From NCBI GenBank assembly GCA_035533635.1, contig DATLTL010000061.1, positions 1 to 37,047 of the forward strand: DNA of 37,047 nt, written 5' to 3'. The notes beneath the pieces are model-generated. The model did no database searches. It was not told the origin of the DNA and saw nothing but the letters and a program-made list of their open reading frames with translations. Every line of letters starts with the position of its first letter. Position 1 is the first letter of the stretch. The stretch comes from Nitrososphaerales archaeon (GTDB taxonomy: Archaea; Thermoproteota; Nitrososphaeria; Nitrososphaerales; CADDZS01). The translations under genes and the position numbers were made by a program. Of this stretch, positions 4,842 through 35,013 are shown one piece after another.

Positions 4842-4953
4842 TTGGTATTGAAGAATCTCGGATAGATTGGATACAGCCAACTCGTTCATTCAACTCCAAG
4901 CAACTGATTTGATCTCGCTAAGTCGAACAAACAGGGGAGGTTGAAGTCTACAT

Positions 4954-6871: not shown

Positions 6872-7139
6872 TTATAATGTCACAGTTAGCGTTTCAACAG
6901 CGTCGTCCGGTTGAATTTCCCGGTCGAGCTTTTTCTTGACTTGGCGCAGAAAGTCTATAAGTTGCCTGGTGTTGGAAATCCTAGTTTGGGACAACTGAAT
7001 ACAGACTCAGATTTTCTTTGATGCTTTCTTCATCAGCTGGAATCTCTCTTGTCCCAGTCGACTCTAGAATAGTAATTGCGTCCTTCAGAGATTCGTCGCT
7101 CGGAATAAACTTGTACAGTGTCTTGAACGTCGAAAAGAA
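6872..7139 (-). pseudogene. decayed gene remnant (two overlapping reading-frame fragments)
   Basis: Minus-strand fragments FFSTFKTLYKFIPSDESLKDAITILESTGTREIPADEESIKENLSLYSVVPN* (7139-6981) and VCIQLSQTRISNTRQLIDFLRQVKKKLDREIQPDDAVETLTVTL* (7006-6872). Both look protein-like but lie in different frames, each bounded upstream by a stop. They sit in an otherwise ORF-free 870-nt gap. Confidence 0.3.
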
Positions 7140-7403
7140 TCATTGAACACAAGGTACGCAGTCGACACCAATGTACTTGTACATTGGTTGCTAAAGTCTG
7201 ATGGACTGAGAGCAAAGATAATCAATAGTCAGACGTTCGCCAAAGTCTAAGAAAGGTAGCAGAAACATCGTTGAACAATATTTCGTACTCTTAGTCCATA
7301 ATGCAGAATCATGTTGTGAAACATGGCTTTCCCTCCCTCAACATCTGAGAAGTTCGTGCGTTCAAACGCACATGGAGTTAGGGCAAGCGCCGCGGGTTAC
7401 CTT

Positions 7404-7449
7404 AACTTACTCACTCACGTGCCACGTTCTCGTCTCTCGTTTCCTCTGT
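7404..7449 (+). repeat. 46-bp direct repeat, copy 1 (weaker similarity extends left to about 7392)
   Basis: aacttactcActcacgtgccacgttctcgtctctcgtttcctctgt is identical to 14514-14559 except for one base (7413 A vs 14523 G). Confidence 0.9.
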
Positions 7450-7614
7450 CCCTAATCTTAGCACTCGCTCGAATTTAAGCGTTCGACCCGGTTGCTTCTC
7501 AAAGCCAAGCCGTAGCATTTGCGGTACATAGAACAAAAGTTTGAGCACCTACGCTCCTCGTGATCTACGGTTAACGCGAAATCAGGTTAACTACATTTAA
7601 GCATGGGGTGACGG

Positions 7615-8928: not shown

Positions 8929-9015
8929 GAATACTCACTCCCCTTCCCTGCCAAATCCGCGAATGCAAGGATTCCGACGCGTCAGCTGAAGAACGTATCG
9001 TCCACACCTTCGGGT

Positions 9016-10317: not shown

Positions 10318-10333
10318 GCGAGGGAAAAGAAAA

Positions 10334-11584
10334 ATGACTGAAGCAGTTGTTAGCAGTGGCACACCTACCCTGAAGGAGATTGAGCTTTCAAAATGCGACA
10401 TCCATCCACTGTTCAAGAACATGAGGTTCGACTGCGCCGAAGACATCGAGAAACTTTGCGAATTGATTCACATCAACGGTCAGCAGTTACCGGGAATCGT
10501 AGTTCCCGTACCTGGTAACGAAGGTTACTACTGGTCGACTATTGGAAACAGGCGGTTGCTTGCGTGCAAGATGTCAATGGAGAAGTACGGCACGCCAGAG
10601 ACGTTCCTTGCGATGATCAAAGAGGATCTAATAGATCAGGACATCGTAATCAAAAAGTACGTCGAGAACTTTTCGGAAGATGGTGGTGGCAGAAAGGATC
10701 TCTCTTTTCTCGAAGAAGCTTCCTCTCTCAGCGAGATGATTTCTAGATTCCCGACAGAGTTCAGAAAGAAAGTTGCAATAGGCATGAACGCGACGGAGGA
10801 AGCCATCCAGAGAAAAGTTGACTTGTTCAAAAGGCTGGATCCTGCGATGGTGGCCGACCTCCACAGGTTGGAGCGACACGTCGTCCCACCATTCTATTTC
10901 ACGTACGAACACGTGGAATCCCTCATATCACTCCATCTTGGTAGAGAGGCAACGCTCAAGATTGCGGCGCTAGTTGCAGAAAGGCGGGCATCTCCGTCGT
11001 TTGTAGATGCTTACGCGCTTGCACTCGACACTGGAAAAGTAGGTGAACCTGAATGGCTATACACGATATTTCCGGATATCGAGCGACGGAGAGAAGAGGA
11101 GAAGAAAAAAGACAAGATTTCACAAATGAAAGAGGTGGCAACAGCTCCTTCTTCTAATTCCGCATTTCTAAAGAATGCAGTCAGCGTAGGATGCTTCCAC
11201 TGCGGTTTCGAGAATCCACTCAAATCAACTCTCAAAGGAACCGTTAGCTTTCTGAATCCATCCGATCCAATTCACAAGGAATCGATGGAACCAATTTCAT
11301 ATCTCTTGCCTCCCAAGGTCTGTTGGAACTGCCATAAGCCATTCTCAATAATTGTGCACGGACGGACGAAGATCAAGTCGATTCCTCCAGTTGAAGAGAA
11401 CGACGAGTACGCTGGAGAAGAGTTAGCAGGTACATTCGAATCAAAGCTAGGGCTTATCGACTTCGATCAAGATGCGGCGGAGTGCAAGGAGGGTTGCTTG
11501 CTTTGCCACTGGATCTTTGCTACCATGAAGGGAAGGTTCAAGCTTGACCATGCGACGGGACGGTTCACTGTCAACGCTCAGTAA
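10334..11584 (+). CDS. ParB/Srx N-terminal-domain protein with C-terminal zinc-ribbon-like Cys pairs
   Basis: ParB-N-like segment IELSKCDIHPLFKNMRFDCAEDIEKLCELIHINGQQLPGIVVPV...YWSTIGNRRLLACKM (GxRR box). The C-terminus has CFHCG...CWNCH and CKEGCLLCH. Confidence 0.55.
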   Translation: MTEAVVSSGTPTLKEIELSKCDIHPLFKNMRFDCAEDIEKLCELIHINGQQLPGIVVPVPGNEGYYWSTIGNRRLLACKMSMEKYGTPETFLAMIKEDLIDQDIVIKKYVENFSEDGGGRKDLSFLEEASSLSEMISRFPTEFRKKVAIGMNATEEAIQRKVDLFKRLDPAMVADLHRLERHVVPPFYFTYEHVESLISLHLGREATLKIAALVAERRASPSFVDAYALALDTGKVGEPEWLYTIFPDIERRREEEKKKDKISQMKEVATAPSSNSAFLKNAVSVGCFHCGFENPLKSTLKGTVSFLNPSDPIHKESMEPISYLLPPKVCWNCHKPFSIIVHGRTKIKSIPPVEENDEYAGEELAGTFESKLGLIDFDQDAAECKEGCLLCHWIFATMKGRFKLDHATGRFTVNAQ

Positions 11585-11642
11585 ATGATCCAAAAAAGTC
11601 AGTTCGACCCCGCAATTCGATCAGCCTTTGCATAAGCGGGAA

Positions 11643-11690
11643 ATCCGATGAATATGCGATTATCCGATGGATATCGGATTTCCTTAAATA
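11643..11690 (+). promoter_or_regulatory. ATCCGATG direct repeats plus ATCCGAT/ATCGGAT inverted repeat next to a TATA-like box, upstream of the HTH gene
   Basis: atccgatg occurs at 11643-11650 and 11662-11669. The inverted repeat is atccgat(ggat)atcggat at 11662-11679. ccttaaata at 11682-11690 lies about 35 nt before ATG 11724. Confidence 0.45.
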
Positions 11691-11723
11691 CAATCGTCGA
11701 GACAACTAGCATGTCGTAAGACG

Positions 11724-12419
11724 ATGGTTAAACTAACAGCCCCGCAGACATCCAAAGTCATCAACTATCTCCTTGCCAACCCCAGCACATCTCAGGTCGA
11801 AATTTCAAGGAGTGTAGGAGTGTCACGAGATCTCGTCAACCATGTCGTCCACGAATTGGAGGCTCCAGGGATAGTTTTGCAGGAGGCGCGCGAACATCTG
11901 GAGCTCAAGGATCCTCTCAGGCTGCTTGAAGCTCTGTCAATCCAGCGTCCGCTGTCAAAGCATCTGATAGCCGAATTCAGGACGGAAGAGTCTGATGTGA
12001 CAAAAGTTGAGAGGATGGTAAGAAACGCGGCCGCTCATTTTTCAGATAGTAATGGCTATGCACTCACATGCTTTTCTGCTCTCTCCAAATACATTGAATA
12101 CTACATTACTTATCCAACAGTGCACGTGTACTCTGAAAGACCGGGCGAGCTTCGCAAGGGTCTCGTCGAAGGAAGAGGGGATGTTGTGGTTCAAATTCTA
12201 AAACCAGATTCTGAGCTGATACTCGGAAATGCAAGGCGGATGCGTGACTTGATGCTAGTCGAGCCTATACAGGTCGTCATCGACCTCTTCTGTCTCGGGG
12301 GCGCGGGGCGCGACGGAGCGATGAAGCTTTACGAAAACGTGAAACAAGTTGGCGGCAGCAATAAGAAGGACAAGGTTCAGATCTCCACTAGTAAGAGGAT
12401 CGTACGAAGAACTGCTTAG
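11724..12419 (+). CDS. winged-HTH transcriptional regulator, AbiEi-like antitoxin candidate
   Basis: N-terminal wHTH (VINYLLANPSTSQVEISRSVGVSRDLVNHVVHELEAPGIV) plus a C-terminal domain of about 150 aa. It sits directly upstream of, and overlaps, a nucleotidyltransferase-like ORF. Confidence 0.5.
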   Translation: MVKLTAPQTSKVINYLLANPSTSQVEISRSVGVSRDLVNHVVHELEAPGIVLQEAREHLELKDPLRLLEALSIQRPLSKHLIAEFRTEESDVTKVERMVRNAAAHFSDSNGYALTCFSALSKYIEYYITYPTVHVYSERPGELRKGLVEGRGDVVVQILKPDSELILGNARRMRDLMLVEPIQVVIDLFCLGGAGRDGAMKLYENVKQVGGSNKKDKVQISTSKRIVRRTA

Positions 12420-13167
12420 TTTCCTCCACTATTATCGGCACTTCGGAACGCCGACAATCATTGGAGGGTGGGCGGTGTATTTCTACAACCCGTACTATGG
12501 GTCTGTTGACATAGATGTCGTGGGGCCCAGCTTCAGAGGGTCCTTCTACGAAGTAATTGAGAGGTATGAGCGATCCCATGGATACGCTATAATTCCGAAC
12601 GAGCCTTTCGGTATAGAAGTCGTCGCGAGCAAGCCACTATACAGAGGCAAGAAGAAGATCGGCGAAATGGAGATCGACGCTTGCAGTTACGGACAAAACT
12701 CAGCCAGTCTGTTCCATGAAGATGAAACAAAGCATCTCCCATACTCCCTCTGCGGGCGAGAAGATCATCGAAGGGAAGCCGTCATAGCAAAAGACCGTAT
12801 CTGCTACGTTCCAAGCAGAGCCCTTCTGACGCTCTTCAAGGTGAAGGCTAGAAGAGACAGATCATTCGACATCAGTGCGAGGGGTGCGACCATGAATCCT
12901 TCCAGGCTTGAGTGGTTGAGAGCGAAGGTCGTCAAGGACGGTTCGGACATCATAGCTTTGCTCGACGATAAGAATCGAAGAGGTAGAGAGCTGTTGAATG
13001 ACCAGCTTGATTTTGCGCAAATGAAACGGATCGCCTCTGCACACGAGATAACCGATTTGGTGAGAGAAACTCTGCAGGAAGTGCTGAAAGACAATAGCGC
13101 GTTTTCTTTATACAACAGATATGTCGAGCGGAAAGCACTGCTACAATCCGTGGAAGCGCTGGACTAA
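12349..13167 (+). CDS. nucleotidyltransferase-fold protein, AbiEii-like toxin candidate
   Basis: IIGGWAVYFYNPYYGSVDIDVV resembles the GG(T/W)A...S.DID motif of AbiEii/COG2253-type nucleotidyltransferases. The only in-frame start found by eye is TTG 12349, giving an unusual 71-nt overlap with the HTH gene. Confidence 0.45.
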   Translation: MAAAIRRTRFRSPLVRGSYEELLSFLHYYRHFGTPTIIGGWAVYFYNPYYGSVDIDVVGPSFRGSFYEVIERYERSHGYAIIPNEPFGIEVVASKPLYRGKKKIGEMEIDACSYGQNSASLFHEDETKHLPYSLCGREDHRREAVIAKDRICYVPSRALLTLFKVKARRDRSFDISARGATMNPSRLEWLRAKVVKDGSDIIALLDDKNRRGRELLNDQLDFAQMKRIASAHEITDLVRETLQEVLKDNSAFSLYNRYVERKALLQSVEALD

Positions 13168-13295: not shown

Positions 13296-14459
13296 TTGAT
13301 GGAGGATGACACGAGTCGCCGCAAGAGGCTCGATCTTGAAACAATCAAGAAGGTGATCAGAAAACCTGACTTCAATCACGAAGGCATGTATGTTGAGGAG
13401 GTAATTGTGGATACAGACCTCTACAACAAAGTTGAGAATCTCACGCGGAAAATCTACAGCAAAAGACAATTCAAGTCCGATATCCGGTGGGAGGGACTCT
13501 ACGTTCCTGTAAACTCAAGAGGAAAGGAAATTTGCATCCCTCTTTTCATAATGAAGTTAAAGAACAATTATTTCCTCCACGTCGATAAAGTCGGCAGTAT
13601 CATAATTTCCACAAAGGAGTTCGCAACAAGAGAGAATCTTCCAAACCTTGGTTCAGCCGTGATCATCGACAGCAATGAAACTAAAGAATACCGAGTAACG
13701 AAGAATCTAGTACTATCTCTTGATGGCTTTCTGCCTGAACTGAACAAACCCAAGGCAATTGAAAAGAGAGTGCCGTATGAATACCGCGGCGGGAAAATCA
13801 AACGAAAATATGTTGTTTCGCACAGAGACCTCATGGGCGAACTGACAAAGAAACAAATCTTCAGGAGTTACAGAAGACACCTTCGAAAAGTCAGATCTGT
13901 AGATAGGATATCATTGAATGAGTATCTCCATACTGCGGCTATCGCGTATCGCGCGCTCTATCCAGAATTCCGAGACAAAAATTCGCTGGAAATGTACGAC
14001 AGCAGAGCGGATTTTAGACACGGTGGTATGCTTGATATCAAGGATGCGAACAGTAAAGACGAATACACGAACTGGCTTGTAAGCAGCACATGGTCGGGTT
14101 CCCACCCCTTTGAGATAATTGCAGGATACCGCACCATTGGAATCTGCCTAGATCCTCCAAGGAAAAACAAATACTTGCCCCAGGAGGAGAGCGGGTACTA
14201 TACTCTATCTGCGGGAGGAGCCTCCTACCATAAGACACTAGTTGATATTCTATCGGCCTTCATTAAGCGAAAAGCTCCGGTAAGAGCAGCTGGGCTCAAA
14301 GAAATTTTGAACTATCTAACGGGAAAGACGTTCCTCCGAATAGACGAATTCTGGTCTGATGAAACCGTTCCATATTCAACGCTGAAGCAGAGAAGATTAT
14401 TGAGCAAGGTCGTATGGGATAGGCTTTCATTCGCGAAGCTGCGCCATAGAAAGCGCTGA
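13296..14459 (+). CDS. hypothetical protein (387 aa, basic, no family recognised)
   Basis: Long uninterrupted ORF with ordinary amino-acid composition. It is the last gene before repeat copy 2. Confidence 0.5.
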   Translation: MMEDDTSRRKRLDLETIKKVIRKPDFNHEGMYVEEVIVDTDLYNKVENLTRKIYSKRQFKSDIRWEGLYVPVNSRGKEICIPLFIMKLKNNYFLHVDKVGSIIISTKEFATRENLPNLGSAVIIDSNETKEYRVTKNLVLSLDGFLPELNKPKAIEKRVPYEYRGGKIKRKYVVSHRDLMGELTKKQIFRSYRRHLRKVRSVDRISLNEYLHTAAIAYRALYPEFRDKNSLEMYDSRADFRHGGMLDIKDANSKDEYTNWLVSSTWSGSHPFEIIAGYRTIGICLDPPRKNKYLPQEESGYYTLSAGGASYHKTLVDILSAFIKRKAPVRAAGLKEILNYLTGKTFLRIDEFWSDETVPYSTLKQRRLLSKVVWDRLSFAKLRHRKR

Positions 14460-14513
14460 TCGCCGCGTCGCCGCACTACCACCATCCCTCTTCGCAGTGC
14501 GGATGGTTAGCTC

Positions 14514-14559
14514 AACTTACTCGCTCACGTGCCACGTTCTCGTCTCTCGTTTCCTCTGT
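14514..14559 (+). repeat. 46-bp direct repeat, copy 2 (related sequence extends left to about 14485)
   Basis: See copy 1. It lies 22 nt upstream of ATG 14581 of the methyltransferase. Confidence 0.9.
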
Positions 14560-14632
14560 GGAGCTGCTGCTTCTCTGGATATGAAGCGTTTACTGACTGG
14601 GCGAGTACTATACTCCAGATTGGCTTGCGGAA

Positions 14633-16831
14633 TTGATAGTCAACGAAGCTCTTGAAGATGAGACGAAAGAAATACTTGATCCGTCCTCTGGCTCCGGTAC
14701 ATTTCTAGCAGCTAGTATTCGTAGAAAGAAAGAATTGATGTCGAAGAACAAGAAATACTCTGCTTCTGCTCAACTTGACTTGATTATGCGAACTGTCAGA
14801 GGGATCGATGTTCATCCTCTTGCAATTATACTGTCAAGGGCGAACTATTTGGCAGCTATTGGACCTGAACTATTATCTGCGCGACGGGGCGCTATTTCGG
14901 TTCCTGTGTATCTTGCAAACTCGCTCAGACTTCCTGAGACCGCAACTGATCTGCATCAAGGCGTCAGTTCGTACAAAATTGATGCTGAGAAAAAAATTCT
15001 AAGGTTGCCAATACAAATTGCAAAAGATCCTGATTTTACGGATATCGCAATAGAAACAGTTCGCGAATACTCTCACGAGGTAGCCTCTGGGCTTAGCCCA
15101 AAGATTGAGGAATTTGAAAACTTGCTTTATCAGAGATTAACCGCTCAACAGAAAAACAAGCTCGAAAAGAATGCTCCAAGCATTCTTCTTGAAACCGCAA
15201 TCACAATGGCTGATCTTATCAAAGAGGGAAAAGACACGATCTGGGCATTTATTCTGAAAAACATATACAAACCTCTTTTTCTCCAAGCCGAAAAATTTGA
15301 TGTCATTGTAGGTAACCCTCCGTGGCTTTCGTACCGATATGTTGAGAGTACTGAATACCAAGATTTTCTAAAGAATTTGATAATTGATAAGTACAATATA
15401 CTCGGCAAGGAAAGAGCAGAACTAATTACACAGATGGAACTTGCAACTCTCTTCCTAGCTAGAGCATCGGACTTGTTTCTGAAAAAGCAAGGAACAATTT
15501 ACTTTGTCATGCCCAGAAGTGTCTTCGTAAGTGACCAACACTTCAATTTTAGAGATGGAAGTTCCAAGCCTTCAATGAAACTTTTCCAGCTTTACGATCT
15601 TGAGGATGTCGAACCTCTTTTCAAAGTGCCTAGTTGTGTTGTGGCAGCGAAATTTGGAACTCCCGCCAAACAAGTCGACGCTAAGATCTTTGAAGGAAAA
15701 CTTCAGCGGAAAAATGCTAAATTGAAAGAAGCTTTGGCAGTACTCACTTCCACTGACAAGAAATTTCAGTGTTACAGGATCGGGCAGCGCTCATTTCTTG
15801 AAAGCGTGGAATTTCAGAAAGTATTACGAGCAATCGAAAAAAGCAAGCCCAGTGAATATTACAAGAATTTTACGCAAGGCGCAACGATTGTCCCGCGTCA
15901 ACTGTGGTTTGTTGAACCAGTTGTCCACGAGAAACTTGGAATGGACCCTTCTATGCCGAGACTCAAGACTTCTCAAAGAGCAATTGATCGAGCAAAAGAA
16001 CAGTACGCAGATGTACGAGTGGAAGGCGAAGTCGAATCTAGATTCCTATTCGGAGTCGCCACGGGATCGGAATTAGCCCCATTCTGCTCAACCACACTTC
16101 CAGTAGTTGTGTTACCTATTGAGGCAAGTGAAGGCAAGTACCACATGCTTGATGTTGAGGAATCTCAAAGGAAAGGATACTCGGGATTGAAAGAATGGCT
16201 TGTAACTGCCGAGAAAACTTGGAAAAAGAAGAGAGGTGAAAAGGCGACCAAGATGAGCATCTACCAAAGACTAAATTATTCGCACTGCCTGACCAACCAG
16301 AGTTCAAAAAAGAAATACAAAGTTCTCTATAATGCATCGGGAACATATCTTGTATCGTGTATAGTTAGAAATCAGAAAGAGGTTGTCGAATTAGAAAATT
16401 CACGAATTAATATTACTGGAGTAGTCGCCGATGCGAAAGCTTACTGGTTCGATACAAACAACCTAGATGAAGCTCTTTTTATCACATCCATGCTAAACTC
16501 GCCCATTGTTGACTCTCTTATCAAACCAATGCAGAGTCACGGACTTTGGGGAGAACGTGATATTCACAAGAAAGTGCTCGAGCTTCCTCTCCCAAAGTTT
16601 GATTCGTCGAATAAATCCCATATCGCCATGGTAGAACTTGCAAAAAAAGCACAAGTGAAAGCCGAAACTTTGATTCCAAGTCTTGAAAAGAAGTACGTCG
16701 GGATAGGAAAAATTAGACAACTTATCAAGGTCGAATTGGCAGAGGAATTACTCAACATAGACAAGATCATGCGCGAATTACTTAGTAAGATTGGTGATTT
16801 GGACAGTGGAATGGAAGGCTTTCTCAAGTAG
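14633..16831 (+). CDS. gamma-class N6-adenine DNA methyltransferase (M.TaqI/Eco57I-like), 5' end disrupted by an apparent frameshift
   Basis: Motif I ILDPSSGSGTFL and motif IV VIVGNPPWLSY are present. Motif X GEYYTPDWLAELIV is encoded in-frame just upstream of the called TTG start, but that frame is closed by TGA at 14594. ATG 14581 (MKRLLTG) lies in the +1 frame. The long C-terminal region is a presumed target-recognition domain. Confidence 0.85.
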   Translation: MIVNEALEDETKEILDPSSGSGTFLAASIRRKKELMSKNKKYSASAQLDLIMRTVRGIDVHPLAIILSRANYLAAIGPELLSARRGAISVPVYLANSLRLPETATDLHQGVSSYKIDAEKKILRLPIQIAKDPDFTDIAIETVREYSHEVASGLSPKIEEFENLLYQRLTAQQKNKLEKNAPSILLETAITMADLIKEGKDTIWAFILKNIYKPLFLQAEKFDVIVGNPPWLSYRYVESTEYQDFLKNLIIDKYNILGKERAELITQMELATLFLARASDLFLKKQGTIYFVMPRSVFVSDQHFNFRDGSSKPSMKLFQLYDLEDVEPLFKVPSCVVAAKFGTPAKQVDAKIFEGKLQRKNAKLKEALAVLTSTDKKFQCYRIGQRSFLESVEFQKVLRAIEKSKPSEYYKNFTQGATIVPRQLWFVEPVVHEKLGMDPSMPRLKTSQRAIDRAKEQYADVRVEGEVESRFLFGVATGSELAPFCSTTLPVVVLPIEASEGKYHMLDVEESQRKGYSGLKEWLVTAEKTWKKKRGEKATKMSIYQRLNYSHCLTNQSSKKKYKVLYNASGTYLVSCIVRNQKEVVELENSRINITGVVADAKAYWFDTNNLDEALFITSMLNSPIVDSLIKPMQSHGLWGERDIHKKVLELPLPKFDSSNKSHIAMVELAKKAQVKAETLIPSLEKKYVGIGKIRQLIKVELAEELLNIDKIMRELLSKIGDLDSGMEGFLK

Positions 16832-17058: not shown

Positions 17059-18036
17059 TTGGCGGACAGCTCTAAGGGCAGTAGTGTCGAAATGCAACGA
17101 GCAGGGAAACCAAGTTCCACTCATTCGCAAAACGAAAAACCTGATTGGCTACTGGATCGCATCAAGACTTTGGAAGGTTACAACGAGAAGGCCCGAGATC
17201 TACTCAAACAGACAGGAGAAGTATACGAAGTCGGACCGCAAGCTGTGTTGAAGCTCAGCATTTTAGCATACTACCTTGATGTCTATACCCAGATCATTAA
17301 GAAGCGGTTCCCAAAGTCATACTTTCTTGACTTGTTTGCTTCTTCGGGAATCAATAAGATTGAGAACACTGATGAGGTGATATTGGGTTCACCTCTCATA
17401 GCTGAATACATTCCAGACAAGAAATTTGATAAGCTCATTCTCTTTGAAAGCAAGGAAGCGAGAGCGAAGGCGCTTCAAAAACTGCTTCCAAAAGCAAAGG
17501 TCGTTCACGGTGATGTTAACGCCCTCGATCTTACAAACTACTTCAAGGACGAGGAGGGCAAAATTGTTCCATTGTTCTGCTTTGCAGATCCAGAAGGTAT
17601 GGAGCTAGATTGGTCTACCATGACGCAGGTTCTGAAGACTTGGTCTGATGTCATGATAAATTACCATCCCGATGCTGTAAGAAGAACCGCAGGTCGAGCA
17701 TTCAAGAAGGATAAACCGTACGAAGATAGGATGAATAGTTTCTTTGGAACCGACCACTGGAAGCTCTTTCAGACTTTTGAAAGCGACGATGCTTTTTTGA
17801 ATTTATATATCTCCCAGATTCGTCAATTCAAGGAAATGGTCATACCGATCAGGGTCAGAGGACAGAAGAGTTATTACTATTACATTATATTCGCTGTTAA
17901 GAAAACAAATGGTACTCAAGGTTGGATCGATGCTATTGAGAGAGCGAAGAAACACATCGAAAGCTCCGATGCTTCAAGAACGCTGACAACGATCGATATA
18001 CAGCAAGGGAAACAACAAACGCTGTCCTTTGACTAG
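17059..18036 (+). CDS. tcmP: three-Cys-motif partner protein TcmP (TIGR04474-like)
   Basis: LKLSILAYYLDVYTQII...YFLDLFASSGINKI resembles the TcmP signature (K...Yl..Y...yiDlFAGpG). It sits immediately upstream (33-nt gap) of a Gp37/Gp68-family gene, which is the defining context of TcmP. The start may be ATG 17092. Confidence 0.65.
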   Translation: MADSSKGSSVEMQRAGKPSSTHSQNEKPDWLLDRIKTLEGYNEKARDLLKQTGEVYEVGPQAVLKLSILAYYLDVYTQIIKKRFPKSYFLDLFASSGINKIENTDEVILGSPLIAEYIPDKKFDKLILFESKEARAKALQKLLPKAKVVHGDVNALDLTNYFKDEEGKIVPLFCFADPEGMELDWSTMTQVLKTWSDVMINYHPDAVRRTAGRAFKKDKPYEDRMNSFFGTDHWKLFQTFESDDAFLNLYISQIRQFKEMVIPIRVRGQKSYYYYIIFAVKKTNGTQGWIDAIERAKKHIESSDASRTLTTIDIQQGKQQTLSFD

Positions 18037-18069: not shown

Positions 18070-18873
18070 ATGGAGAGCCTATCTGGTCTAAGGAATGCGA
18101 GATGTCCTGAATTGGGAGACAAAAGCGCCATAGAATGGACTGACGCCTCGTGGAATCCTACCACTGGTTGCGATAAGGTATCACCTGGTTGCAAAAACTG
18201 CTATGCGGAACGTCTTGCTGGCAGATTACAACTTATGGGCAATCCGAAATACAAGAACGGTTTCAAGTTCACTGTCCAAGAGAGCGCCCTAGACCTCCCC
18301 CTCAAATGGAAGGAGCCTAGGAAGATATTCGTTAATTCAATGAGTGATCTGTTTCATGAAGAAATGCCCTTTGGGTATCTCAAGAGGTGCTTCGATATTA
18401 TGAAGAAGGCTGATCGGCACAGATACCAAATATTGACCAAAAGACCTGAAAGGATGCAGGAATTCGCGGAGTTCTATGGAGAAATCCCTGACCACGTATG
18501 GATGGGAACTTCGGTTGAAATGGCCTTCTACAAGAAACGGATCGATATTCTGAGAAACATAGAAGCAAAGATAAGGTTCATCAGCTTTGAACCATTGCTA
18601 GGAGCAATCGGCAAAGTGAACTTTAGAGGAATTTCTTGGTCAATAGTGGGTGGTGAGAGTGGACCTGGGCACAGGCCGATCGAAAAGGAATGGGTGCGAG
18701 AGATAAGAGATCAGTGCAAGACTCAAAAAGTTGCCTTCTTCTTCAAACAATGGGGTGGTGCCACGCCAAAGTCAGGTGGACGACTTCTTGATGGCAAGTT
18801 ATGGAACCAATACCCTGAACCTGCGCCTAACTACACTAAGCGGACAATGCAACCACTACAGCTAGTATCATAA
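18070..18873 (+). CDS. DUF5131 / phage Gp37-Gp68 family protein (PF07505-like)
   Basis: N-terminal IEWTDASWNPTTGCDKVSPGCKNCYAERLA is the family hallmark with its three-Cys motif. FISFEPLLG and VGGESGPG...FFFKQWGG are also family-typical. Confidence 0.8.
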   Translation: MESLSGLRNARCPELGDKSAIEWTDASWNPTTGCDKVSPGCKNCYAERLAGRLQLMGNPKYKNGFKFTVQESALDLPLKWKEPRKIFVNSMSDLFHEEMPFGYLKRCFDIMKKADRHRYQILTKRPERMQEFAEFYGEIPDHVWMGTSVEMAFYKKRIDILRNIEAKIRFISFEPLLGAIGKVNFRGISWSIVGGESGPGHRPIEKEWVREIRDQCKTQKVAFFFKQWGGATPKSGGRLLDGKLWNQYPEPAPNYTKRTMQPLQLVS

Positions 18874-19117
18874 TTGAATCGATCTACCTATTCATGATTG
18901 CGAATCGGAGAAACTCTCAGGTCAGTCCTCCAAGGAAGATTCACGCCTGTCTAACCTAGTCAATGGACAGGATTCAAGCCATCGCAGAGTCAATATTCGG
19001 AGCTTTATTTCAAACAAAGAAGGAAGCCAGTCATACGGTCCAATTCTATGATTGATTCCTTTTGCTCACGAGCAACAAACTAAAATTCCACGATTACTGA
19101 ACAATCAATGAGATCCA

Positions 19118-20188
19118 TTGTCGCAGGTCCAAATTCCAAGCGATCCGATCAGTGAAAGTTTCGCACTCTGCAAGAACACACTGGAGAACATTGGGCAACA
19201 TACTCTTACCATGCGCGCGCTGGATTCGATACTCGATCAATTCATCAACGATGAAGATGCAATCAAGGGCGACGAGACGACCGAACAGATAGATTTCAAA
19301 CCTCATGATGAGATTTCACTCTCTACAGTTAATCCAACAATTGGAATTCCCAAAACAGTCTATGCGGTTGATTCTAGCAGCATCGTCTTGGGTCAAGGAG
19401 TAAAGGGGGGTGTTCTCTTCAGCATCAGAGTTGTCGTTCTGAGCTGGAACCCAAAGGTAGGAAAGAGATCAATAGTGGACAGATTCGAAGTTCCAGGCTT
19501 TGTTTCGAATGAGAACAAAGAGGATTTGTATCATGGGCTCCGATCGAAGCTATGGAATCTGAGCCGAGAAGATGTCAAGGCGCCGGAACCATTCAAGATG
19601 GTCGACAGGATCAGAAATATTTACGAAAGGTATGCACAGATCGAGATTTCAAAGAAGATTGATGATTCCATATTACTGGTTGACGGATCTCTGACAGCTG
19701 ATACAGTGGATACTCCTTCAGCTGTGTTGGAAGAAGTCCTGAAGAACGCTGCCACTAATAGCTCCGACGTAGTCGCCATATCCAAAAAGACAAGATTGAC
19801 TACGGCGTCCGGAACAAGAATACTCGAACTGCTCGGCGAAAATACGAAGATTCCAGCTATAGTTCCAATTTCGAAACTTCTTTCTCCAAGGGCGCCATAC
19901 CGGTTGCTCGGTGAGGTCTATGTGGGAAGATTGAGTGGTGTGCCGATTTCTTTTCGAATCGATGTGAGCTCAAAGAGAGATCATGCACACGTCTTTGGAG
20001 ACCTTCTGGCGAGCGTGCCTCTCGAGAGTGGATATCCTGTTCCTCTGATTCATGCGCATGTTCATTGCTATTATAATTCATTTGATGTACTAGGCGTGAG
20101 AGCATTCTTGGCCAAGAAGCGCGTCCCGATGACTGAGGAATTTGATATAAGACGGATTCTGTTTGGCATGTATGGCGGAGGAGCTTGA
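19118..20188 (+). CDS. nurA: NurA-domain nuclease
   Basis: VYAVDSSSIVLG and ILLVDGSLTAD match the NurA catalytic Asp motifs. It is followed after 5 nt by a HerA-type ATPase gene. Confidence 0.6.
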   Translation: MSQVQIPSDPISESFALCKNTLENIGQHTLTMRALDSILDQFINDEDAIKGDETTEQIDFKPHDEISLSTVNPTIGIPKTVYAVDSSSIVLGQGVKGGVLFSIRVVVLSWNPKVGKRSIVDRFEVPGFVSNENKEDLYHGLRSKLWNLSREDVKAPEPFKMVDRIRNIYERYAQIEISKKIDDSILLVDGSLTADTVDTPSAVLEEVLKNAATNSSDVVAISKKTRLTTASGTRILELLGENTKIPAIVPISKLLSPRAPYRLLGEVYVGRLSGVPISFRIDVSSKRDHAHVFGDLLASVPLESGYPVPLIHAHVHCYYNSFDVLGVRAFLAKKRVPMTEEFDIRRILFGMYGGGA

Positions 20189-20193
20189 ATTAG

Positions 20194-21687
20194 TTGATAG
20201 TTATTGAGAAATACTTTGACCGACTTTCAGTACTTTACAATCCCTTGACCGAGCAGGCAAGAGTTGGAGAAAGTCTCCTAATTCATGAGCCCGGAATCCA
20301 AAATGGACCCAATGGAGTAATTGCTCAGATAATCGAGGAAAGACCCTATGTTCCCATGGGAATGAGAGATAGCCTTCTTATCGAATCACTTACACCGGAA
20401 ATAACCACTAGCACCGCGCAACCAGAAGAGCTGGGTGCTGCTCGTTCTGAACTGCGAAATCAAAAAACTATCATCGCCAAGATCAGACTTAGCGCGATTG
20501 TAGACAAGGGAAAATCTCTTCCCTCATCTCTTGTTCCATGGACTGGCTGGAGCCCCACTCCGAGCTCTAAGGTCACAAAGATTTCAGATTCAGAGATTCT
20601 CAGATTCATCGATCTCAAGGGAACTACTAAGAATATTGCCTCGATTGGAAAGACTACTGGCGACACTCCTTTTGATTTTAATCTATACTACCTTCACGGC
20701 ATCAGTACTCTTGTTGGAGGGCGGGGAACTGGCAAGAGTCATCTCGCGAAGAAATTTGCTCTAAAGCTTGTTGATGCGGGACGCCAAGTGATTATTTTTG
20801 ACATCAATGATGAGTGGACTGCCATGGAAAAAGGCGCAGATGGCAAGGAGAGCCCATATGCAAAGAAAATTGTAAGGGCAAACCCCGGGGAATCACTCTC
20901 TTTTGATCTGAAGTATCTTGGAAAGATAGTTTTCATTTCTATGCTGAAGATGATGAATCTTGATCCATCTACCTCTTCTGTTCAAACTCTCATGAACAAG
21001 TGGGACGAGCTCGACAGGGAGAAGAAACTCACATTCGATAATTTGAAGAAGACCGCCGAGTCGACAAATGAAAAAGTGAAGGAAGCGCTTCAAACTAGAT
21101 TTGCACAGTTGGAGAATAGCGGAATAATAGCGTCTGGCGAAAACAATGGAACGAGTATACAGGCGTTGCTTGAAAAGATAAAGGAGGGAGGACTTCTTGT
21201 CGTAAACCTCAAAGACAAGCCAAAGATTTCGCAGTACGTCATCGTTCAGCTCTTCACAAGCAAACTTGCGAACATTCTCTCCGATCCAAGATCAACCCCG
21301 CTTGTCCTGATTGTCGAAGAAGCGCAGACATACATGAGCAATTTCGATATTGAGGAAATCGTAGCAAGGCTCAGGCACCTGGGGCTCCATCAGATCTATA
21401 TCACCAACAGCCCACAGAGCTTGACTCCGTTCCTCATGAGCCACATTTCGAACTGGTTCCTATTCAATCTCGTGAATCAGCAGGACATTGAATATCTTCA
21501 ACGATCTCTGCCCCTTGACCTGGAGTCTGCCAGTGTTCTCATCAGAATGCTTCCCCCCAGACAGGCGCTTGTTGTGATAAACGAGAACTACAAGGACTCG
21601 ACAAAGAATTATCCTTTCGTAGTCAAGGTTGATCCAATTCCATATCAGACCGCAGGAGTGACAAGAGAGCTTTTTGAAGCTCCTTAG
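20194..21687 (+). CDS. herA: HerA-type (DUF87/FtsK-HerA superfamily) ATPase
   Basis: N-terminal HAS-barrel-like segment (ARVGESLLIHE...GVIAQIIEE). Walker A GGRGTGKSHLAKKF and Walker B LVLIVEEAQ. The size (497 aa) and its pairing with nurA fit HerA. Confidence 0.7.
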   Translation: MIVIEKYFDRLSVLYNPLTEQARVGESLLIHEPGIQNGPNGVIAQIIEERPYVPMGMRDSLLIESLTPEITTSTAQPEELGAARSELRNQKTIIAKIRLSAIVDKGKSLPSSLVPWTGWSPTPSSKVTKISDSEILRFIDLKGTTKNIASIGKTTGDTPFDFNLYYLHGISTLVGGRGTGKSHLAKKFALKLVDAGRQVIIFDINDEWTAMEKGADGKESPYAKKIVRANPGESLSFDLKYLGKIVFISMLKMMNLDPSTSSVQTLMNKWDELDREKKLTFDNLKKTAESTNEKVKEALQTRFAQLENSGIIASGENNGTSIQALLEKIKEGGLLVVNLKDKPKISQYVIVQLFTSKLANILSDPRSTPLVLIVEEAQTYMSNFDIEEIVARLRHLGLHQIYITNSPQSLTPFLMSHISNWFLFNLVNQQDIEYLQRSLPLDLESASVLIRMLPPRQALVVINENYKDSTKNYPFVVKVDPIPYQTAGVTRELFEAP

Positions 21688-21743
21688 TTAGTTTAGGACA
21701 GAATCTTAGTGCTGCTGCTGACAATCGTCAAGCCGGGGCGCAT

Positions 21744-21749
21744 TTTTTA
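21744..21749 (+). terminator. oligo-T tract downstream of herA (possible archaeal terminator)
   Basis: A T6 run 57 nt after the herA stop. Confidence 0.3.
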
Positions 21750-21761
21750 TCCCCCTTATGT

Positions 21762-21825
21762 ACTTACTTGCTCTCACTCTCTCTGTCTTGCTCACTCTCT
21801 CTTACACTCTCTCCTATCGACACAC
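21762..21825 (+). repeat. CT-rich polypyrimidine tract whose first 25 nt resemble the ends of the 46-bp repeat
   Basis: acttacttgctctcactctctctgtcttgctcactctctcttacactctctcct is almost purine-free on the + strand. acttact...ctctgt parallels the repeat termini. Confidence 0.5.
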
Positions 21826-23841: not shown

Positions 23842-24411
23842 TCATCTGATATGTCGTTCCAAACGGCTTTTTGTTTGGTTATACCATGTTTTGTAGTATA
23901 TTTGCCATGATCTACTTGCAAATATCACTTCTTCAGAAGCGTCTTTTGGTAAGCTTGAGTACATTAAGCGATAGGTCAAACGTAATCCAAGATTCGACTT
24001 GATTCTAGATCCAAGCCAACTAGAAATATTTTGAATCTCTGTGGCGGTGTCATGGTCAGAGTTATCCGCAGTTCGTCTTGCTACGTCTTTAGTAAATTCT
24101 GGCGCATCATCCGTGATGGTCATGTCGTAACCGTTTATGAAACAAAAGAATGCCGTTGTCATTAGAGCCGTTCTTTTGTTTCCATCTGTAAAAGGATGGA
24201 AATTGATGTATGCATACATCAGTGCGCTTATCTTGCTAAGAAGGCTAGGGAATGGGATAAAATGATAAACATCTGTCTTTACCCATTCAATCGAGCCTTC
24301 AACCATCCCCTTCGACATCCATCCTTGATCGCCTCTTAGCTTGATCAAGACATCGTGAAAGTCTTGAACGTATTTGGGTGTAGGATAGATTATCCTGTTT
24401 GGATGAGCCAA
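23842..24411 (-). CDS. Doc/Fic family protein (toxin-type)
   Basis: Fic-fold active-site motif HPFTDGNKRTAL, the Doc-type HxFx(D/E)GNKR variant. Size is 189 aa. Confidence 0.8.
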   Translation of the reverse strand: MAHPNRIIYPTPKYVQDFHDVLIKLRGDQGWMSKGMVEGSIEWVKTDVYHFIPFPSLLSKISALMYAYINFHPFTDGNKRTALMTTAFFCFINGYDMTITDDAPEFTKDVARRTADNSDHDTATEIQNISSWLGSRIKSNLGLRLTYRLMYSSLPKDASEEVIFASRSWQIYYKTWYNQTKSRLERHIR

Positions 24412-27346: not shown

Positions 27347-27961
27347 ATGACTACAGAAATGCAAAGCAAGGAAAAACTTGCGGAATCTGAATATTTCCTA
27401 GAGCTTCTTCGAAGCAACTTTGGAGACCTAAGAATTATGAAATATTGCTTCTCCGCATTCATGAGCGCAGTTCACAGCACAATGGACATCATGCTGTACG
27501 ACTGTGCTGAGGCGTTTGAATTGCGTCTCACGCGAGAGGAGAGATTCGAACAAAGAGACTTCGCACTAGTTGCCCGAGCAAAAGAAAATAAAAACGCTTT
27601 GGAATTTCTTGCATGGTGGAAGCAAAAGGTGGGACTCCTGAGCAAGAATCCCCTGTGGAATACACGACATGTGATAAACCATCGTGGTTATCCTCCAGTG
27701 AAGCAGACTGTATTTGTTTCTGGAACTATTCTGGCTCAATCCAGTGTCAGTTACGAACTTCCTTCTATTGATGAAGTCATCGTTAGTGGTTCCGTAGGGC
27801 CCGTATTACCCAGTAACGCTTGGCAGAATATTGTTACAAATCCAGAAATCTATCTTGAGGAGTTTCCAGACATCGACCTTCGAAAACTATGTCAGATGTT
27901 ATGGAGCGAAGTCGGAGCCATCGTTTCAGAGGCCGAAAAGAAGTTCTTGAGTGCGCGATGA
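27347..27961 (+). CDS. hypothetical alpha-helical protein with a possible HEPN Rx4H motif
   Basis: Helical N-half (SEYFLELLRSNF...FSAFMSAVHSTMDIML) followed by NTRHVINHRG (R-x4-H). It overlaps the next gene by 11 nt. Confidence 0.35.
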   Translation: MTTEMQSKEKLAESEYFLELLRSNFGDLRIMKYCFSAFMSAVHSTMDIMLYDCAEAFELRLTREERFEQRDFALVARAKENKNALEFLAWWKQKVGLLSKNPLWNTRHVINHRGYPPVKQTVFVSGTILAQSSVSYELPSIDEVIVSGSVGPVLPSNAWQNIVTNPEIYLEEFPDIDLRKLCQMLWSEVGAIVSEAEKKFLSAR

Positions 27962-28838
27962 TGAGAAATCTGGCTCTAGGTCAAGAAATCACATGAATGC
28001 AGAGAGTAAAGGACTTCTGATACATATTGGAGCGGACACATCGAATGATGAAACTCTCGGAATCGTTGGTCCAGTTTTTCATGACAATCAATTTGAATTC
28101 ATCCCTATCGTTGAAACAATGCCGAGACAAGGTGCTCCAACTTATAGAGACATTAGGTGCACATCACGGCAATCTAGCCCCTACAACAGAAATCTTTCGT
28201 TCTACGTTCGTGAGCCCCTTGAACAGAAACCATGTCATTACGACCCTAACCCTGAAGGTTTCACTTATTCCGAGCCTCCTGATGCGAGAAGGGGAAAGCA
28301 GTTACTTCGCTTGTTACCAGATGATTTCATTTTCTTCGTTGCCAGTCTAGCCCAGTATTCGGAAGAGAGTTACCGCGAAGTTGATACATCAACAATTCGA
28401 CGACATCAGGCAGGACAAATGACAAAATATCTGATTGGCTATTTCAAGATAAGAGAAGTATTCCAAGTTGACACCAGTGCGACGGAGCAGTCTCGCCACT
28501 ATTCCATAAGAATAGCCCGAAACAACGCGGAAATAGATTCCTCTATGCTCGAGGCGGTTGAACCACAAATCAGGATCAACGCTCACTTCCTAAGACCATC
28601 TGACCGATTCATATGTGCGGTTGGCAATAGAATCGGAATGAAAGGGCAACAACGGCTGTCTCTGTTATTACCTGAAGCTATCCCGCTTACTGAAGGCTGG
28701 CCATTCAAACCGCTTCCCTTCGCCGAAAGGGTTTATGGGAAACTGAACTATCCGAGGGGTCACAAGTGGATTCCTAACGATTTGCGTCCAGATGGATTGC
28801 AGACTCTATTGTCCCGGATTTCAGAATTAGGAGAATGA
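27951..28838 (+). CDS. hypothetical protein resembling the Nmad3-type 'nucleotide modification associated' family
   Basis: LLIHIGADTSNDETLGIVGPVFHDNQFEFIPIVE follows the pattern h-h-x-G-x-D-S/T...G..(G/S)P(I/V)F.D(G/N).F.F(I/L)PI that I associate with that family. HYDPNPEGFTYSEP and DDFIFFVASL follow. The likely start is the Met of MNAESKG (27993). Confidence 0.35.
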   Translation: MRDDEKSGSRSRNHMNAESKGLLIHIGADTSNDETLGIVGPVFHDNQFEFIPIVETMPRQGAPTYRDIRCTSRQSSPYNRNLSFYVREPLEQKPCHYDPNPEGFTYSEPPDARRGKQLLRLLPDDFIFFVASLAQYSEESYREVDTSTIRRHQAGQMTKYLIGYFKIREVFQVDTSATEQSRHYSIRIARNNAEIDSSMLEAVEPQIRINAHFLRPSDRFICAVGNRIGMKGQQRLSLLLPEAIPLTEGWPFKPLPFAERVYGKLNYPRGHKWIPNDLRPDGLQTLLSRISELGE

Positions 28839-28845
28839 ATGGGAC

Positions 28846-29466
28846 TTGCAGCACTCCCAATTTCTCCGTAGCTACGTAATGACTGCTGACACGGGCTTTG
28901 CACCTTCTGTAGATAGGGACGGAAGATATCTGACCTTGTGCACTTGTAAAGGATATCACATACGAAGCGTTGCAAATGAAAACGACTGGATAATGGGCAC
29001 AGTTGGAACAAAACTCGCGAGCCTTCACGACGAGAACAATTTTGAGAGTGTAGTCTATCTAGCAAAGATTACAGAGCCTCCAATGAGTTTCAGAAAATAT
29101 TGGGAAGATGATAGATTCCTGAATAGATGCGATAGAGTCTATTCCCCGAGGGAGGATGGTGGAGGCTACATGTCGGTGCAATGGAATCCTCACCTCAATA
29201 ATAATAATCTCGAACCCGACGACACCAAACCTGACAGAGTTTTAATCTCGGATTACTTCTATTATTTTGGCCGCGACCCAATACGTTTGAGCAGTAGATT
29301 CCGTCGTTTCGTAGCGAGAGGTAGAGTGACTCGCAAATTCCCAATAGAGTCTATCCGTGAACTCCTCGACGACTTTGAAAGAAATTGTAGCGGGTTACGA
29401 AACAAGTGTCGTCCACCTTCCGACCCAAATCCCAGATGTCCTGAGGGGACCCTTTGTAGTGACTAA
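28846..29466 (+). CDS. hypothetical protein resembling the Nmad2-type 'nucleotide modification associated' family
   Basis: LRSYVMTADTGFAPSVDRDGRYLTLCTCKGYHIRSVANENDWIMG matches the Y.(V/M)..D.GFAPN...(L)TLA.CKP.IR...GDWI.G pattern recalled for this family. It starts 7 nt after the previous gene. Confidence 0.45.
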   Translation: MQHSQFLRSYVMTADTGFAPSVDRDGRYLTLCTCKGYHIRSVANENDWIMGTVGTKLASLHDENNFESVVYLAKITEPPMSFRKYWEDDRFLNRCDRVYSPREDGGGYMSVQWNPHLNNNNLEPDDTKPDRVLISDYFYYFGRDPIRLSSRFRRFVARGRVTRKFPIESIRELLDDFERNCSGLRNKCRPPSDPNPRCPEGTLCSD

Positions 29467-29839: not shown

Positions 29840-30316
29840 ATGAAACTCGTGCCCAGAGATTCGATTGACTGGAGTACCCGGAACAGCAGGAGTAGAAGTA
29901 GAATCGTAGAATTCGAAAACTTGGTAAAAAAAGCGACAATTGAAGAAGAAGCGACTGCAATTAAACTAACTCTTGGTCAAGCGAACGCACTTATTCGTAA
30001 AGTTAAGGCCGAAGTTGAATTCGCAGAGGTATTTTCGACTAGAGAAAAAGACGGCACGTACTCTGTCAAGGGATACGCAGAGGTATTTTCGACTAGAGAA
30101 AAAGACGGCACGTACTCTGTCAAGGGATACATTCGGGAAGATTTTGTCAAAATTAAATTGGTTCCAAACCCGCAGTTTCTTGTTAAAGAAGTTAGCAAGA
30201 ACTTTTTCTCAGTAAAATGCAATCACAAGAATTGCAGAGCGGGCGGCGTATTTTCAAAAGAAGACATGGAGTATTTCATTGCTTCGCATCCCGAGTATCA
30301 CGACAATAAGCCATGA
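29840..30316 (+). CDS. hypothetical protein containing a perfect 18-aa internal duplication
   Basis: AEVFSTREKDGTYSVKGY occurs twice in tandem. The C-terminus has KCNHKNC. Confidence 0.5.
   Translation: MKLVPRDSIDWSTRNSRSRSRIVEFENLVKKATIEEEATAIKLTLGQANALIRKVKAEVEFAEVFSTREKDGTYSVKGYAEVFSTREKDGTYSVKGYIREDFVKIKLVPNPQFLVKEVSKNFFSVKCNHKNCRAGGVFSKEDMEYFIASHPEYHDNKP
30023..30130 (+). repeat. perfect 54-bp tandem duplication (2 copies)
   Basis: gcagaggtattttcgactagagaaaaagacggcacgtactctgtcaagggatac at 30023-30076 is repeated exactly at 30077-30130. Confidence 0.95.
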
Positions 30317-34880: not shown

Positions 34881-35013
34881 ATATGAAGATCCATCCGCAT
34901 CCACGTGGATAATTTTCTCTGAGGCGGGACAACCGTATGTCTACAACATTTGTCGACATTGTCGACTTCGCTCGCAATCCGCTCAATCCAAGGATGGTTT
35001 CTTTAAAGGCACA

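Follow-up and report, generated by a model that had tools for sequence, protein, structure and literature searches.

The DNA analysed here, which we call the window, is a stretch of 37,047 nucleotides (nt) from a Nitrososphaerales archaeon (contig DATLTL010000061.1 of assembly GCA_035533635.1), and it carries two neighbouring genes, nurA and herA, for a NurA-family nuclease and a HerA-type ATPase. Both open reading frames (ORFs) lie on the plus strand and are separated by a gap of 5 nt, in agreement with an earlier note made from the sequence, and the same two genes were predicted by an independent metagenome gene caller on identical contigs. The pair and the features that belong to it are arranged as follows, with positions counted along the window.

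6732-34690, no strand assigned: variable genomic island of about 28 kb that holds the pair (blastn against the contig L095 of a close relative, and GC content)
18874-19117, plus strand: intergenic region of 244 nt 5' of nurA, the presumed promoter of the pair from a reading of the sequence
19118-20188, plus strand: nurA, encoding a NurA-family RNase H-like nuclease of 356 amino acids (aa) with a TTG start codon (Pfam, AlphaFold2 fold and motifs)
20194-21687, plus strand: herA, encoding a HerA/FtsK-superfamily hexameric ATPase of 497 aa with a TTG start codon (Pfam, AlphaFold2 fold and motifs)
21743-21748, plus strand: run of six T residues about 55 nt past the herA stop codon, a possible archaeal terminator as read from the sequence

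That the two ORFs represent a genuine NurA-HerA pair is close to certain, since the Pfam matches, the AlphaFold models, the fold matches in the PDB and the motifs are all concordant. The NurA ORF was matched by the Pfam NurA profile (PF09376) over residues 79-255 with 29.6 bits against a gathering cut-off of 21. Its AlphaFold2 model, with a predicted local distance difference test value (pLDDT) of 82 and a predicted template modelling score (pTM) of 0.82, had its best PDB match in NurA of Sulfolobus solfataricus (SsoNurA, 2YGK; E 9.6e-10), followed by chains of Deinococcus NurA (7F6D) and Thermococcus NurA (9X1M), with template modelling (TM) scores against the NurA structures of only 0.39-0.52. 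A family profile built from 26 sequences also matched SsoNurA 2YGK (E 7.4e-7), and by means of this profile the D-E-D-Y-H motifs of the window protein could be aligned to the segments VAIDGGS, MEAL, LMDGSL and GYPFPLLKAH of SsoNurA. Across the 26 aligned relatives, residues D85, E170, D189, K223, R280, D282, Y306 and H314 are invariant. Judged by these motifs, the D-E-D-Y-H active site of the window NurA is intact.

The HerA ORF was matched by the Pfam profile of the HerA central domain (DUF87, PF01935) with 40.7 bits against a cut-off of 23.2. Its AlphaFold2 model (pLDDT 84, pTM 0.82) was most similar to HerA of S. solfataricus (SsoHerA, 4D2I; E 2.5e-22, TM scores 0.68/0.73), and SsoHerA was also matched by the HerA family profile over residues 126-486 (E 7.6e-12). 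Both the Walker A motif GGRGTGKS at residues 175-182 and the Walker B residues E375/E376 are invariant across the family alignment, and the same is true for R392, R394, T404 and N405. In the model, beta strands run through residues 1-130 and are followed by an alpha/beta RecA-like core; the beta-rich N-terminal domain may specifically be a HAS barrel, as far as the model allows this to be told.

The two genes are inherited together. Of 90 sequences examined, which were the window and 89 loci, 70 have nurA immediately before herA, and the pairwise identities of NurA and HerA, which were computed over shared alignment columns only, were correlated over 66 loci (r=0.80). This correlation indicates that the two genes move as a unit. 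In known HerA-NurA complexes, a HerA hexamer feeds double-stranded DNA (dsDNA) to a NurA dimer for cutting, and the window pair may form such a complex too, for which the conserved adjacency and the correlated divergence of the two genes are indirect support. The pair shares with canonical HerA-NurA (S. solfataricus 4D2I/2YGK; Thermococcus kodakarensis 9X1L-9X1P; Pyrococcus furiosus NurA 3TAL) the same two-gene architecture and folds, protein lengths close to 500 and 350 aa, both Walker motifs (A and B) and the D-E-D-Y-H active site of NurA. The identity to these proteins in structural alignments is nevertheless 14-16%, and single-sequence HMMER searches do not reach them. Unlike canonical HerA-NurA, the window pair lies in a variable island, not in a core operon, and is not accompanied by mre11-rad50.

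To place the pair among its relatives, an exhaustive HMMER search was carried out, which gave 212 matches at E<=1e-3 among 1.84 billion representatives; word-indexed searches likewise showed the family to be small. In this search the clade of the window pair was represented by one full-length cluster at 50% identity, its next relative being 35% identical. The clade consists of the window and six independent contigs, and among these seven the HerA proteins are 58-93% and the NurA proteins 45-84% identical. In trees calculated by neighbour joining only, with 100 bootstraps, the window's clade was monophyletic in 100 of 100 replicates, and a core clade of 60 sequences from Bathyarchaeia and Nitrososphaeria excluded it in 100 of 100. 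Nesting of the window's clade within the Nitrososphaeria core was seen in none of the 100 replicates, that core being itself monophyletic in 85 of them. The HerA/NurA phylogeny that had been proposed as a check in the earlier note thus places the clade outside the vertically inherited one. The contigs carrying the clade range in GC content from 0.40 to 0.54, which suggests that their hosts are diverse, and the clade is most likely a rare, horizontally moving branch. One further locus (L103, 6110-6871) holds a herA fragment of this clade that is N-terminally truncated, apparently frameshifted and not preceded by nurA, a state consistent with the decay of an accessory gene.

The core clade belongs to a wider family with HerA identities of 26-31% that is common in Bathyarchaeia and Nitrososphaeria and whose tree roughly matches taxonomy. 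Its synteny is characteristic: one to three small genes for proteins resembling winged helix-turn-helix (wHTH) proteins lie directly upstream of NurA-HerA, and GatD-GatE lie further upstream. The wHTH-like genes form clusters present in 47 and 32 loci, and GatE and GatD were found in 17 and 11 loci, respectively. The same gene order is found in Nitrososphaerales, Nitrosocaldus, Terraquivivens (Caldarchaeales) and Geothermarchaeota. The window pair shares with the core pair of TACK archaea the order nurA-herA, the abutting genes and the lack of adjacent mre11 and rad50; it lacks, together with the rest of its clade, both the GatD-GatE-small wHTH-NurA-HerA synteny and the taxonomy-congruent tree, and neither wHTH-like genes nor GatD/GatE adjoin any of the clade's pairs. 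On the grounds of synteny and phylogeny we therefore rejected its assignment to the vertically inherited TACK pair. The earlier note had named vertical inheritance and conserved synteny in relatives as findings that would speak for a housekeeping copy, and neither was seen. Very probably, then, the window pair is an accessory or xenologous copy and not the inherited copy of its lineage. The core operon, in which one to three paralogous, weakly wHTH-like proteins of 150-180 aa and often GatD-GatE precede NurA-HerA, appears to be uncharacterised in its own right; examples are found in L016, L041, L052, L060 (4090-11458), L063 and about 40 other loci.

The absence of mre11 and rad50 had been put forward as a sign of a special role for the pair. 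The absence itself stands: domains of the Mre11 type (Metallophos and Mre11 DNA-binding) or the Rad50 type (SMC_N/AAA_23) were not detected in any ORF of at least 100 aa in the 37 kb of the window, and the sole weak Metallophos_2 match was to a fusion of a 2'-5' RNA ligase with a phosphoesterase, encoded on the minus strand (7615-8928). The pair therefore does not belong to the mre11-rad50-herA-nurA repair operon type. As an argument the absence does not hold, because the inherited NurA-HerA pairs of Nitrososphaeria and Bathyarchaeia likewise have neither mre11 nor rad50 within 10 kb; their absence is normal in this phylum and no sign of a special role. Nitrosocaldus encodes Mre11 and Rad50 besides HerA-NurA (PMC5797428), and the core pair is evidently the HerA-NurA that thaumarchaeal genome papers list together with Mre11 and Rad50.

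The position of the pair in the genome agrees with its accessory status. A close relative of the host is represented by L095, a contig of GCA_021806865.1. The XPB protein encoded in the window is 87-89% identical to that of GCA_021806865.1 and 62-67% identical to proteins of Methylarchaceae, Thaumarchaeota, Nitrososphaerales and Conexivisphaerales, which identifies the host as a Nitrososphaerota archaeon. In blastn comparisons, window positions 3385-6731, which hold XPB-Bax1, matched L095 positions 8122-11489 with 80% identity, window positions 34700-34899 matched L095 positions 14200-14404 with 74% identity, and window positions 36474-36627 were collinear with L095 positions 17435-17582. Between these flanks, L095 has about 2.7 kb where the window has about 28 kb (6.7-34.7 kb) with NurA-HerA among its genes. 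Moreover, at 13.2-34.7 kb the GC content is 0.43, about 5 points below the 0.48-0.51 of the flanks and of the relative. The collinear flanks, the 28 kb that stand against 2.7 kb, and the lower GC content indicate that the segment is a strain-variable island. The pair is absent from this locus in the relative, as far as about 8 kb of its contig after Bax1 show. Accordingly, the view taken in the earlier note that the pair belongs to an accessory cassette is supported by the separate clade, the lack of core synteny and the variable segment of about 28 kb.

The right edge of the island is marked by some 200 nt of conserved non-coding DNA (window 34640-34920, L095 14140-14425; 81% identity) with inverted ends (GCGGATGGA...TCCATCCGC) and an ATCGAT-rich core. 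This element could be regulatory or resemble a miniature inverted-repeat transposable element; it had no tRNA or Rfam match, and tRNA and Rfam searches did not reveal an integration target. In the place of the island, downstream of XPB-Bax1, L095 carries other genes, among them Multi_ubiq and ThiF/E1-like genes (15477-16416); modules for ubiquitin-like conjugation such as this one are known from defence systems.

Five of the six other independent contexts of the window's clade lie near restriction-modification (RM), GmrSD, Shedu or BrxC/D-like genes. These contexts, followed by three outgroup loci, contain the following genes around NurA-HerA.

L003/L094: type III Mod-Res directly downstream; BglII RM, Csa1 and a BrxC/D-like ATPase
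L004: full-length type IIG enzyme directly upstream, homologous to a methyltransferase of the window
L005: GmrSD, two BrxC/D-like genes, Cas3-like helicase and AbiV-HEPN
L090: Shedu SduA_C nuclease upstream; Cdc6, RadA and PolB 3-6 kb downstream
L092: XPD-like helicase, two Dam methyltransferases, SLFN/AlbA_2 and, at a distance of about 7 kb, an integrase
L006: housekeeping genes only (thermosome, GGR)
L010 (Thermoprotei), outgroup: Cas6 two genes downstream
L011 (Bathyarchaeota), outgroup: GmrSD directly downstream
L106 (GCA_002011075.2), closest full-length outgroup with 35% identity: between two CRISPR-like arrays with a period of 64-65

In L106 the neighbours comprise Csx1, Csx3, Cas_NE0113, Csa1 and an MNT-HEPN pair (coordinates 1315-1585, 6974-12502 and 15835-15994), and the gene upstream of herA is NurA-like according to a hidden Markov model built in this study. 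An all-against-all BLAST of the neighbours revealed no third conserved gene in the clade, so that only nurA and herA are common to the contexts. Recurring neighbour ORFs of 352 aa and 416 aa were considered as a shared gene and dismissed, as they are not homologous to each other. At E<=1e-8, 85 neighbour proteins of the window's clade matched 175 PADLOC families, and as a crude control 109 neighbour proteins of the core clade matched 50 families, mostly generic ATPase and helicase models.

We are modestly inclined to regard the window pair as a stand-alone innate antiviral or anti-plasmid effector within a variable defence island. This interpretation of the pair as an end-dependent destroyer of DNA follows from the retention of all catalytic features together with the genomic behaviour of an accessory gene. 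In such a system, the HerA ATPase ring would pump dsDNA into the NurA nuclease dimer. Where a linear genome invades or replicates, the complex would load onto its free DNA ends and degrade it processively, fuelled by ATP, and the circular host chromosome would be spared since it offers no free ends. The cue that separates self from non-self would thus be DNA ends, as with RecBCD, and methylation would not be needed. RecBCD and AddAB combine a motor with a nuclease, load on free dsDNA ends and destroy linear foreign DNA, which is the logic proposed here by analogy; their protein families are nevertheless unrelated to NurA-HerA, and a Chi-like control is not known for NurA-HerA. The same analogy has been drawn for HerA-NurA before (PMC12977600). 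In that study HerA-NurA of T. kodakarensis was found to digest both strands of dsDNA exonucleolytically, whatever the structure of the end, and its authors favour antiviral defence over end resection (PMC12977600). A bolder proposal, namely that the mobile NurA-HerA clade constitutes a self-sufficient archaeal antiviral system that destroys invading DNA from its free ends and requires neither modification marking nor guide RNA, is tentative and in our judgement rather unlikely to hold in full.

HerA proteins partnered with Sir2 or DUF4297 form proven antiphage systems. Like the window pair, Sir2-HerA (Nezha, 8J4U/8SUB) and DUF4297-HerA (9C1M/8ZIQ) consist of a HerA-family ATPase and a degradative effector encoded by a two-gene operon in defence islands, and the profile of the window HerA matched their structures at E values of 3.6e-14 and 4.9e-14 (TM scores of about 0.65-0.70). 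In contrast to these systems, the window pair has NurA as its effector, a HerA that is about 100 aa shorter, and an archaeal host. Since the partner is NurA, and neither Sir2 nor DUF4297, we did not assign the pair to Sir2-HerA/DUF4297-HerA (Gao_Her). TdpAB (8WET/8WFD) also joins a HerA-like ATPase to a nuclease, and TdpA was among the top three structural matches, but the window lacks TdpB. Lastly, the modification-linked MADS system includes a HerA-like ATPase, and the PADLOC model mad8 matched the window HerA at 1.6e-20. Membership in MADS was rejected because MAD6 and MAD7 are absent, MAD6, MAD7 and MAD8 all being mandatory in the model of the authors; the mad2 matches were weak. The mad8 match is probably generic for HerA/FtsK ATPases, since HHpred/PDB alignments were the source of the MADS profiles in their original form. 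Bacterial relatives of the window HerA, in Chloroflexota and Fervidibacter (L070, 8952-12645; L048-L051, L062, L071-L088), have no NurA; they are flanked by an HTH-WYL-WCX regulator upstream in 6 loci and by a PD-(D/E)XK nuclease downstream in 8 loci. From their sequences, these HerA and PD-(D/E)XK loci look like a different candidate HerA-nuclease defence module.

Several observations weigh against a role of the window pair in defence. No PADLOC model matched the window NurA when the window proteins were searched, the NCBIfam family HerA_antiphage scored 23.8 bits for HerA against a cut-off of 800, and the PADLOC HerA models gave E values of only 1e-6 to 1e-3. The context evidence, drawn besides the window from six independent contexts and from three outgroups, is one of association: the effector role suggested in the earlier note is plausible in that members of the clade and the outgroups lie near RM, GmrSD, Shedu, BrxC/D-like and CRISPR accessory genes, and it is in this proximity that its support consists. 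Furthermore, a wider accessory super-clade, in which the outgroups linked to CRISPR and GmrSD would be united with the window's clade, had bootstrap support of 7-16%, which leaves the deep order unresolved, and we did not retain it. The rarity of the clade is also to be read with care: a scan of 185,579 GTDB species genomes gave no relative above 36% identity among the matches listed, an absence that is not absolute, and a scan of metagenomes contributed only further short contigs.

Two of the clade's contexts belong to this counter-evidence as well, and they fit the strongest of the other explanations, according to which the pair is a second DNA-repair copy for 5'-3' end resection in homologous recombination, or a replacement of the copy of the lineage, and the variable region is incidental. 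In L090 the proximity of the pair to RadA, Cdc6 and PolB is what a role in DNA metabolism would predict, and in L006 the context is a housekeeping one. The fold and all catalytic motifs are of the repair type, SsoHerA 4D2I is the single best structural match, and the 497 aa of HerA are close to the canonical 500 aa and not to the 560-700 aa of defence HerAs. On the other hand, the clade is sporadic, rare and without conserved synteny, it falls outside the inherited clade in every bootstrap replicate, the close relative lacks the pair at this locus, and the neighbours are mostly defence genes. We therefore judge the repair copy to be unlikely, although it deserves to be kept in mind.

Alternatively, the pair could serve an integrated plasmid or virus by processing DNA for replication, transfer or packaging, which we consider improbable. 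It is true that HerA/FtsK-type ATPases act as viral packaging motors, that the PHROG family phrog_2666, annotated as 'terminase large subunit', matched at 1e-15, and that the B204 ATPase of STIV was among the PDB profile matches. L092 encodes an integrase at about 7 kb from the pair, single-stranded DNA for archaeal Ced/Ted DNA transfer has been suggested to be generated by NurA-HerA (PMC9905601), and the best NCBIfam match of the window HerA was CedD, far below the cut-off. The IMG/VR viral contigs, however, contained no relative, and the PHROG matches are to generic ATPases, for which reasons a viral origin was rejected. Within the window, Pfam and PHROGs revealed no integrase, capsid or conjugation genes, attachment-site-like repeats do not flank the island, and only nurA and herA are common to the contexts, as described above.

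A further alternative, to which we give slightly less weight still, is that the pair is an accessory arm of CRISPR-Cas or of another sensor, that is, an auxiliary degradation module that has here drifted from its partner. The association known from CRISPR-linked clusters is indeed present in the outgroups: L106 lies between CRISPR-like arrays with Csx1, Csx3 and Cas_NE0113, L010 lies two genes from Cas6, and within the clade Csa1 is encoded near the pair in L003. Clusters of the type nurA-csm6-herA have been reported in Pyrobaculum, and nurA/herA are regulated by Csa3a (PMC12977600); NurA and HerA are also among the putative CRISPR auxiliary genes of the FLSHclust survey (PMC10910872). Unlike these clusters, neither cas genes nor CRISPR arrays adjoin the pair in the window or in the members of its clade, where RM, GmrSD, Shedu and BrxC/D-like genes are found instead. 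The window as a whole has no cas genes or CRISPR array, and the clade members adjoin many different systems with no constant partner.

The remaining genes of the window include the defence-type neighbours that the earlier note had mentioned, and these proved to be real. Apart from the RNA ligase fusion mentioned above and a wHTH protein that is also encoded in the window, the following features were identified.

1555-3063: BrxL, a Lon-like ATPase
3423-6741: archaeal XPB-Bax1 pair
14597-16831 (ORF 14633-16831), plus strand: remnant of an Eco57I/type IIG-like N6-adenine methyltransferase, truncated at its 5' end
17059-18036 and 18070-18873, plus strand: TcmP and a radical S-adenosylmethionine-like DUF5131 protein, a candidate defence pair outside the NurA-HerA unit
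23842-24411, minus strand: Fic/Doc
27951-29466: Nmad3 and Nmad2, nucleotide-modification-associated domains

TcmP scored 106 bits in NCBIfam against a cut-off of 53 and DUF5131 322 bits in Pfam; both correspond to the PADLOC candidate system PDC-M41A/B, and a comparison of the neighbours found TcmP-DUF5131 in none of the other NurA-HerA contexts. The methyltransferase is 31% identical to residues 331-1040 of the 1042-aa homologue that adjoins NurA-HerA in L004. Its motif X, GEYYTP, follows directly after a TGA stop codon at 14594 and thus precedes the first start codon, and the approximately 330 N-terminal residues of the full-length enzyme have no counterpart anywhere in the window. An ORF of 387 aa (13296-14459) was considered as the lost N-terminal half and dismissed for want of any similarity. 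The remnant may be a pseudogene, with a remaining frame of 732 codons that is intact. A direct repeat of 64 nt occurs at 7386-7449 and 14496-14559, 7.1 kb apart, with 89% identity between the copies and 94.5% within a 55-nt core. Its second copy ends 37 nt before position 14597, where the homology to the methyltransferase resumes, and the gene was therefore probably truncated by a rearrangement or by insertion of the 7.1-kb segment.

This repeat is the only significant one, and it does not bracket NurA-HerA. The earlier note had described the pair as bounded by repeat-like sequences, which we could not reproduce: a repeat search and Tandem Repeats Finder, applied to 12-26 kb and to the whole window, returned only chance-level matches of 16-21 nt flanking the pair, and downstream of herA there is just a CT-rich low-complexity stretch (21771-21813). 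Neither this stretch nor the 64-nt repeat had a BLAST match in any of the other loci.

The least probable of the explanations is that of a modification-coupled restriction system, in which self DNA would carry a mark set by the methyltransferase and/or TcmP-DUF5131 and DNA without this mark would be destroyed by NurA-HerA, much as the earlier note had supposed of the upstream modification genes: an Eco57I-like methyltransferase does lie upstream here, its full-length type IIG homologue is directly upstream in L004, L003/L094 have type III Mod-Res immediately after the pair and L092 has Dam methyltransferases in its vicinity, but such coupling is unsupported because the window enzyme is truncated at its 5' end by about 330 residues, with GEYYTP upstream of the first start codon, and because the neighbours vary around NurA-HerA as the sole conserved unit, the methyltransferases of the other contexts being of unrelated families with nucleases of their own, TcmP-DUF5131 being confined to the window, L005, L006 and L090 having no methyltransferase nearby, and membership in MADS being contradicted by the generic nature of the mad8 match and the absence of MAD6 and MAD7.

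Some further observations concern the periphery of the window. At its left edge (529-3063), BrxL is preceded by a protein of 341 aa without a family match, and besides BrxL no BREX gene is visible there; the close relative has PCNA and other genes where the window has BrxL, and this flank of XPB-Bax1 is therefore variable too. Nmad3 and Nmad2 appear to form an operon with a 204-aa protein of unknown function (27347-29466), a candidate nucleic-acid modification module. Lastly, a 54-nt unit is tandemly duplicated at 30019-30126, with copies that are 98-100% identical, inside an ORF of 158 aa (29840-30316) that has no family match.

The idea that NurA-HerA is antiviral and its statistical link to CRISPR loci are already in the literature, and our finding is therefore not categorically new. 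What is new is a discrete, rare and mobile clade of NurA-HerA in mesophilic TACK archaea, which stands apart from the inherited copy and is accompanied by diverse defence genes.

It is a matter of open debate whether the function of archaeal HerA-NurA lies in recombination or in antiviral defence. In 2026, a structural study of the complex from Thermococcus reportedly concluded that this complex is unable to produce recombinogenic 3' tails, and put forward defence as its role. The role has been hard to test genetically because the textbook copies of HerA-NurA are essential and located in repair operons. A dispensable, island-borne clade that occurs together with RM, GmrSD, Shedu and CRISPR accessory genes provides a cleaner handle on this question, since its members could be deleted or transplanted and the cells challenged with viruses. 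If a role in defence were shown in this way, an archaeal member would be added to the HerA-based immune systems, which would inform the origin of the bacterial HerA-effector systems. Under the bolder proposal of a self-sufficient system, which we rated as rather unlikely, the clade would be the archaeal counterpart of the bacterial systems Sir2-HerA and DUF4297-HerA and would connect them in evolution with the 'repair' HerA-NurA, which would imply that defence, rather than recombination, may be the ancestral role of HerA-NurA.

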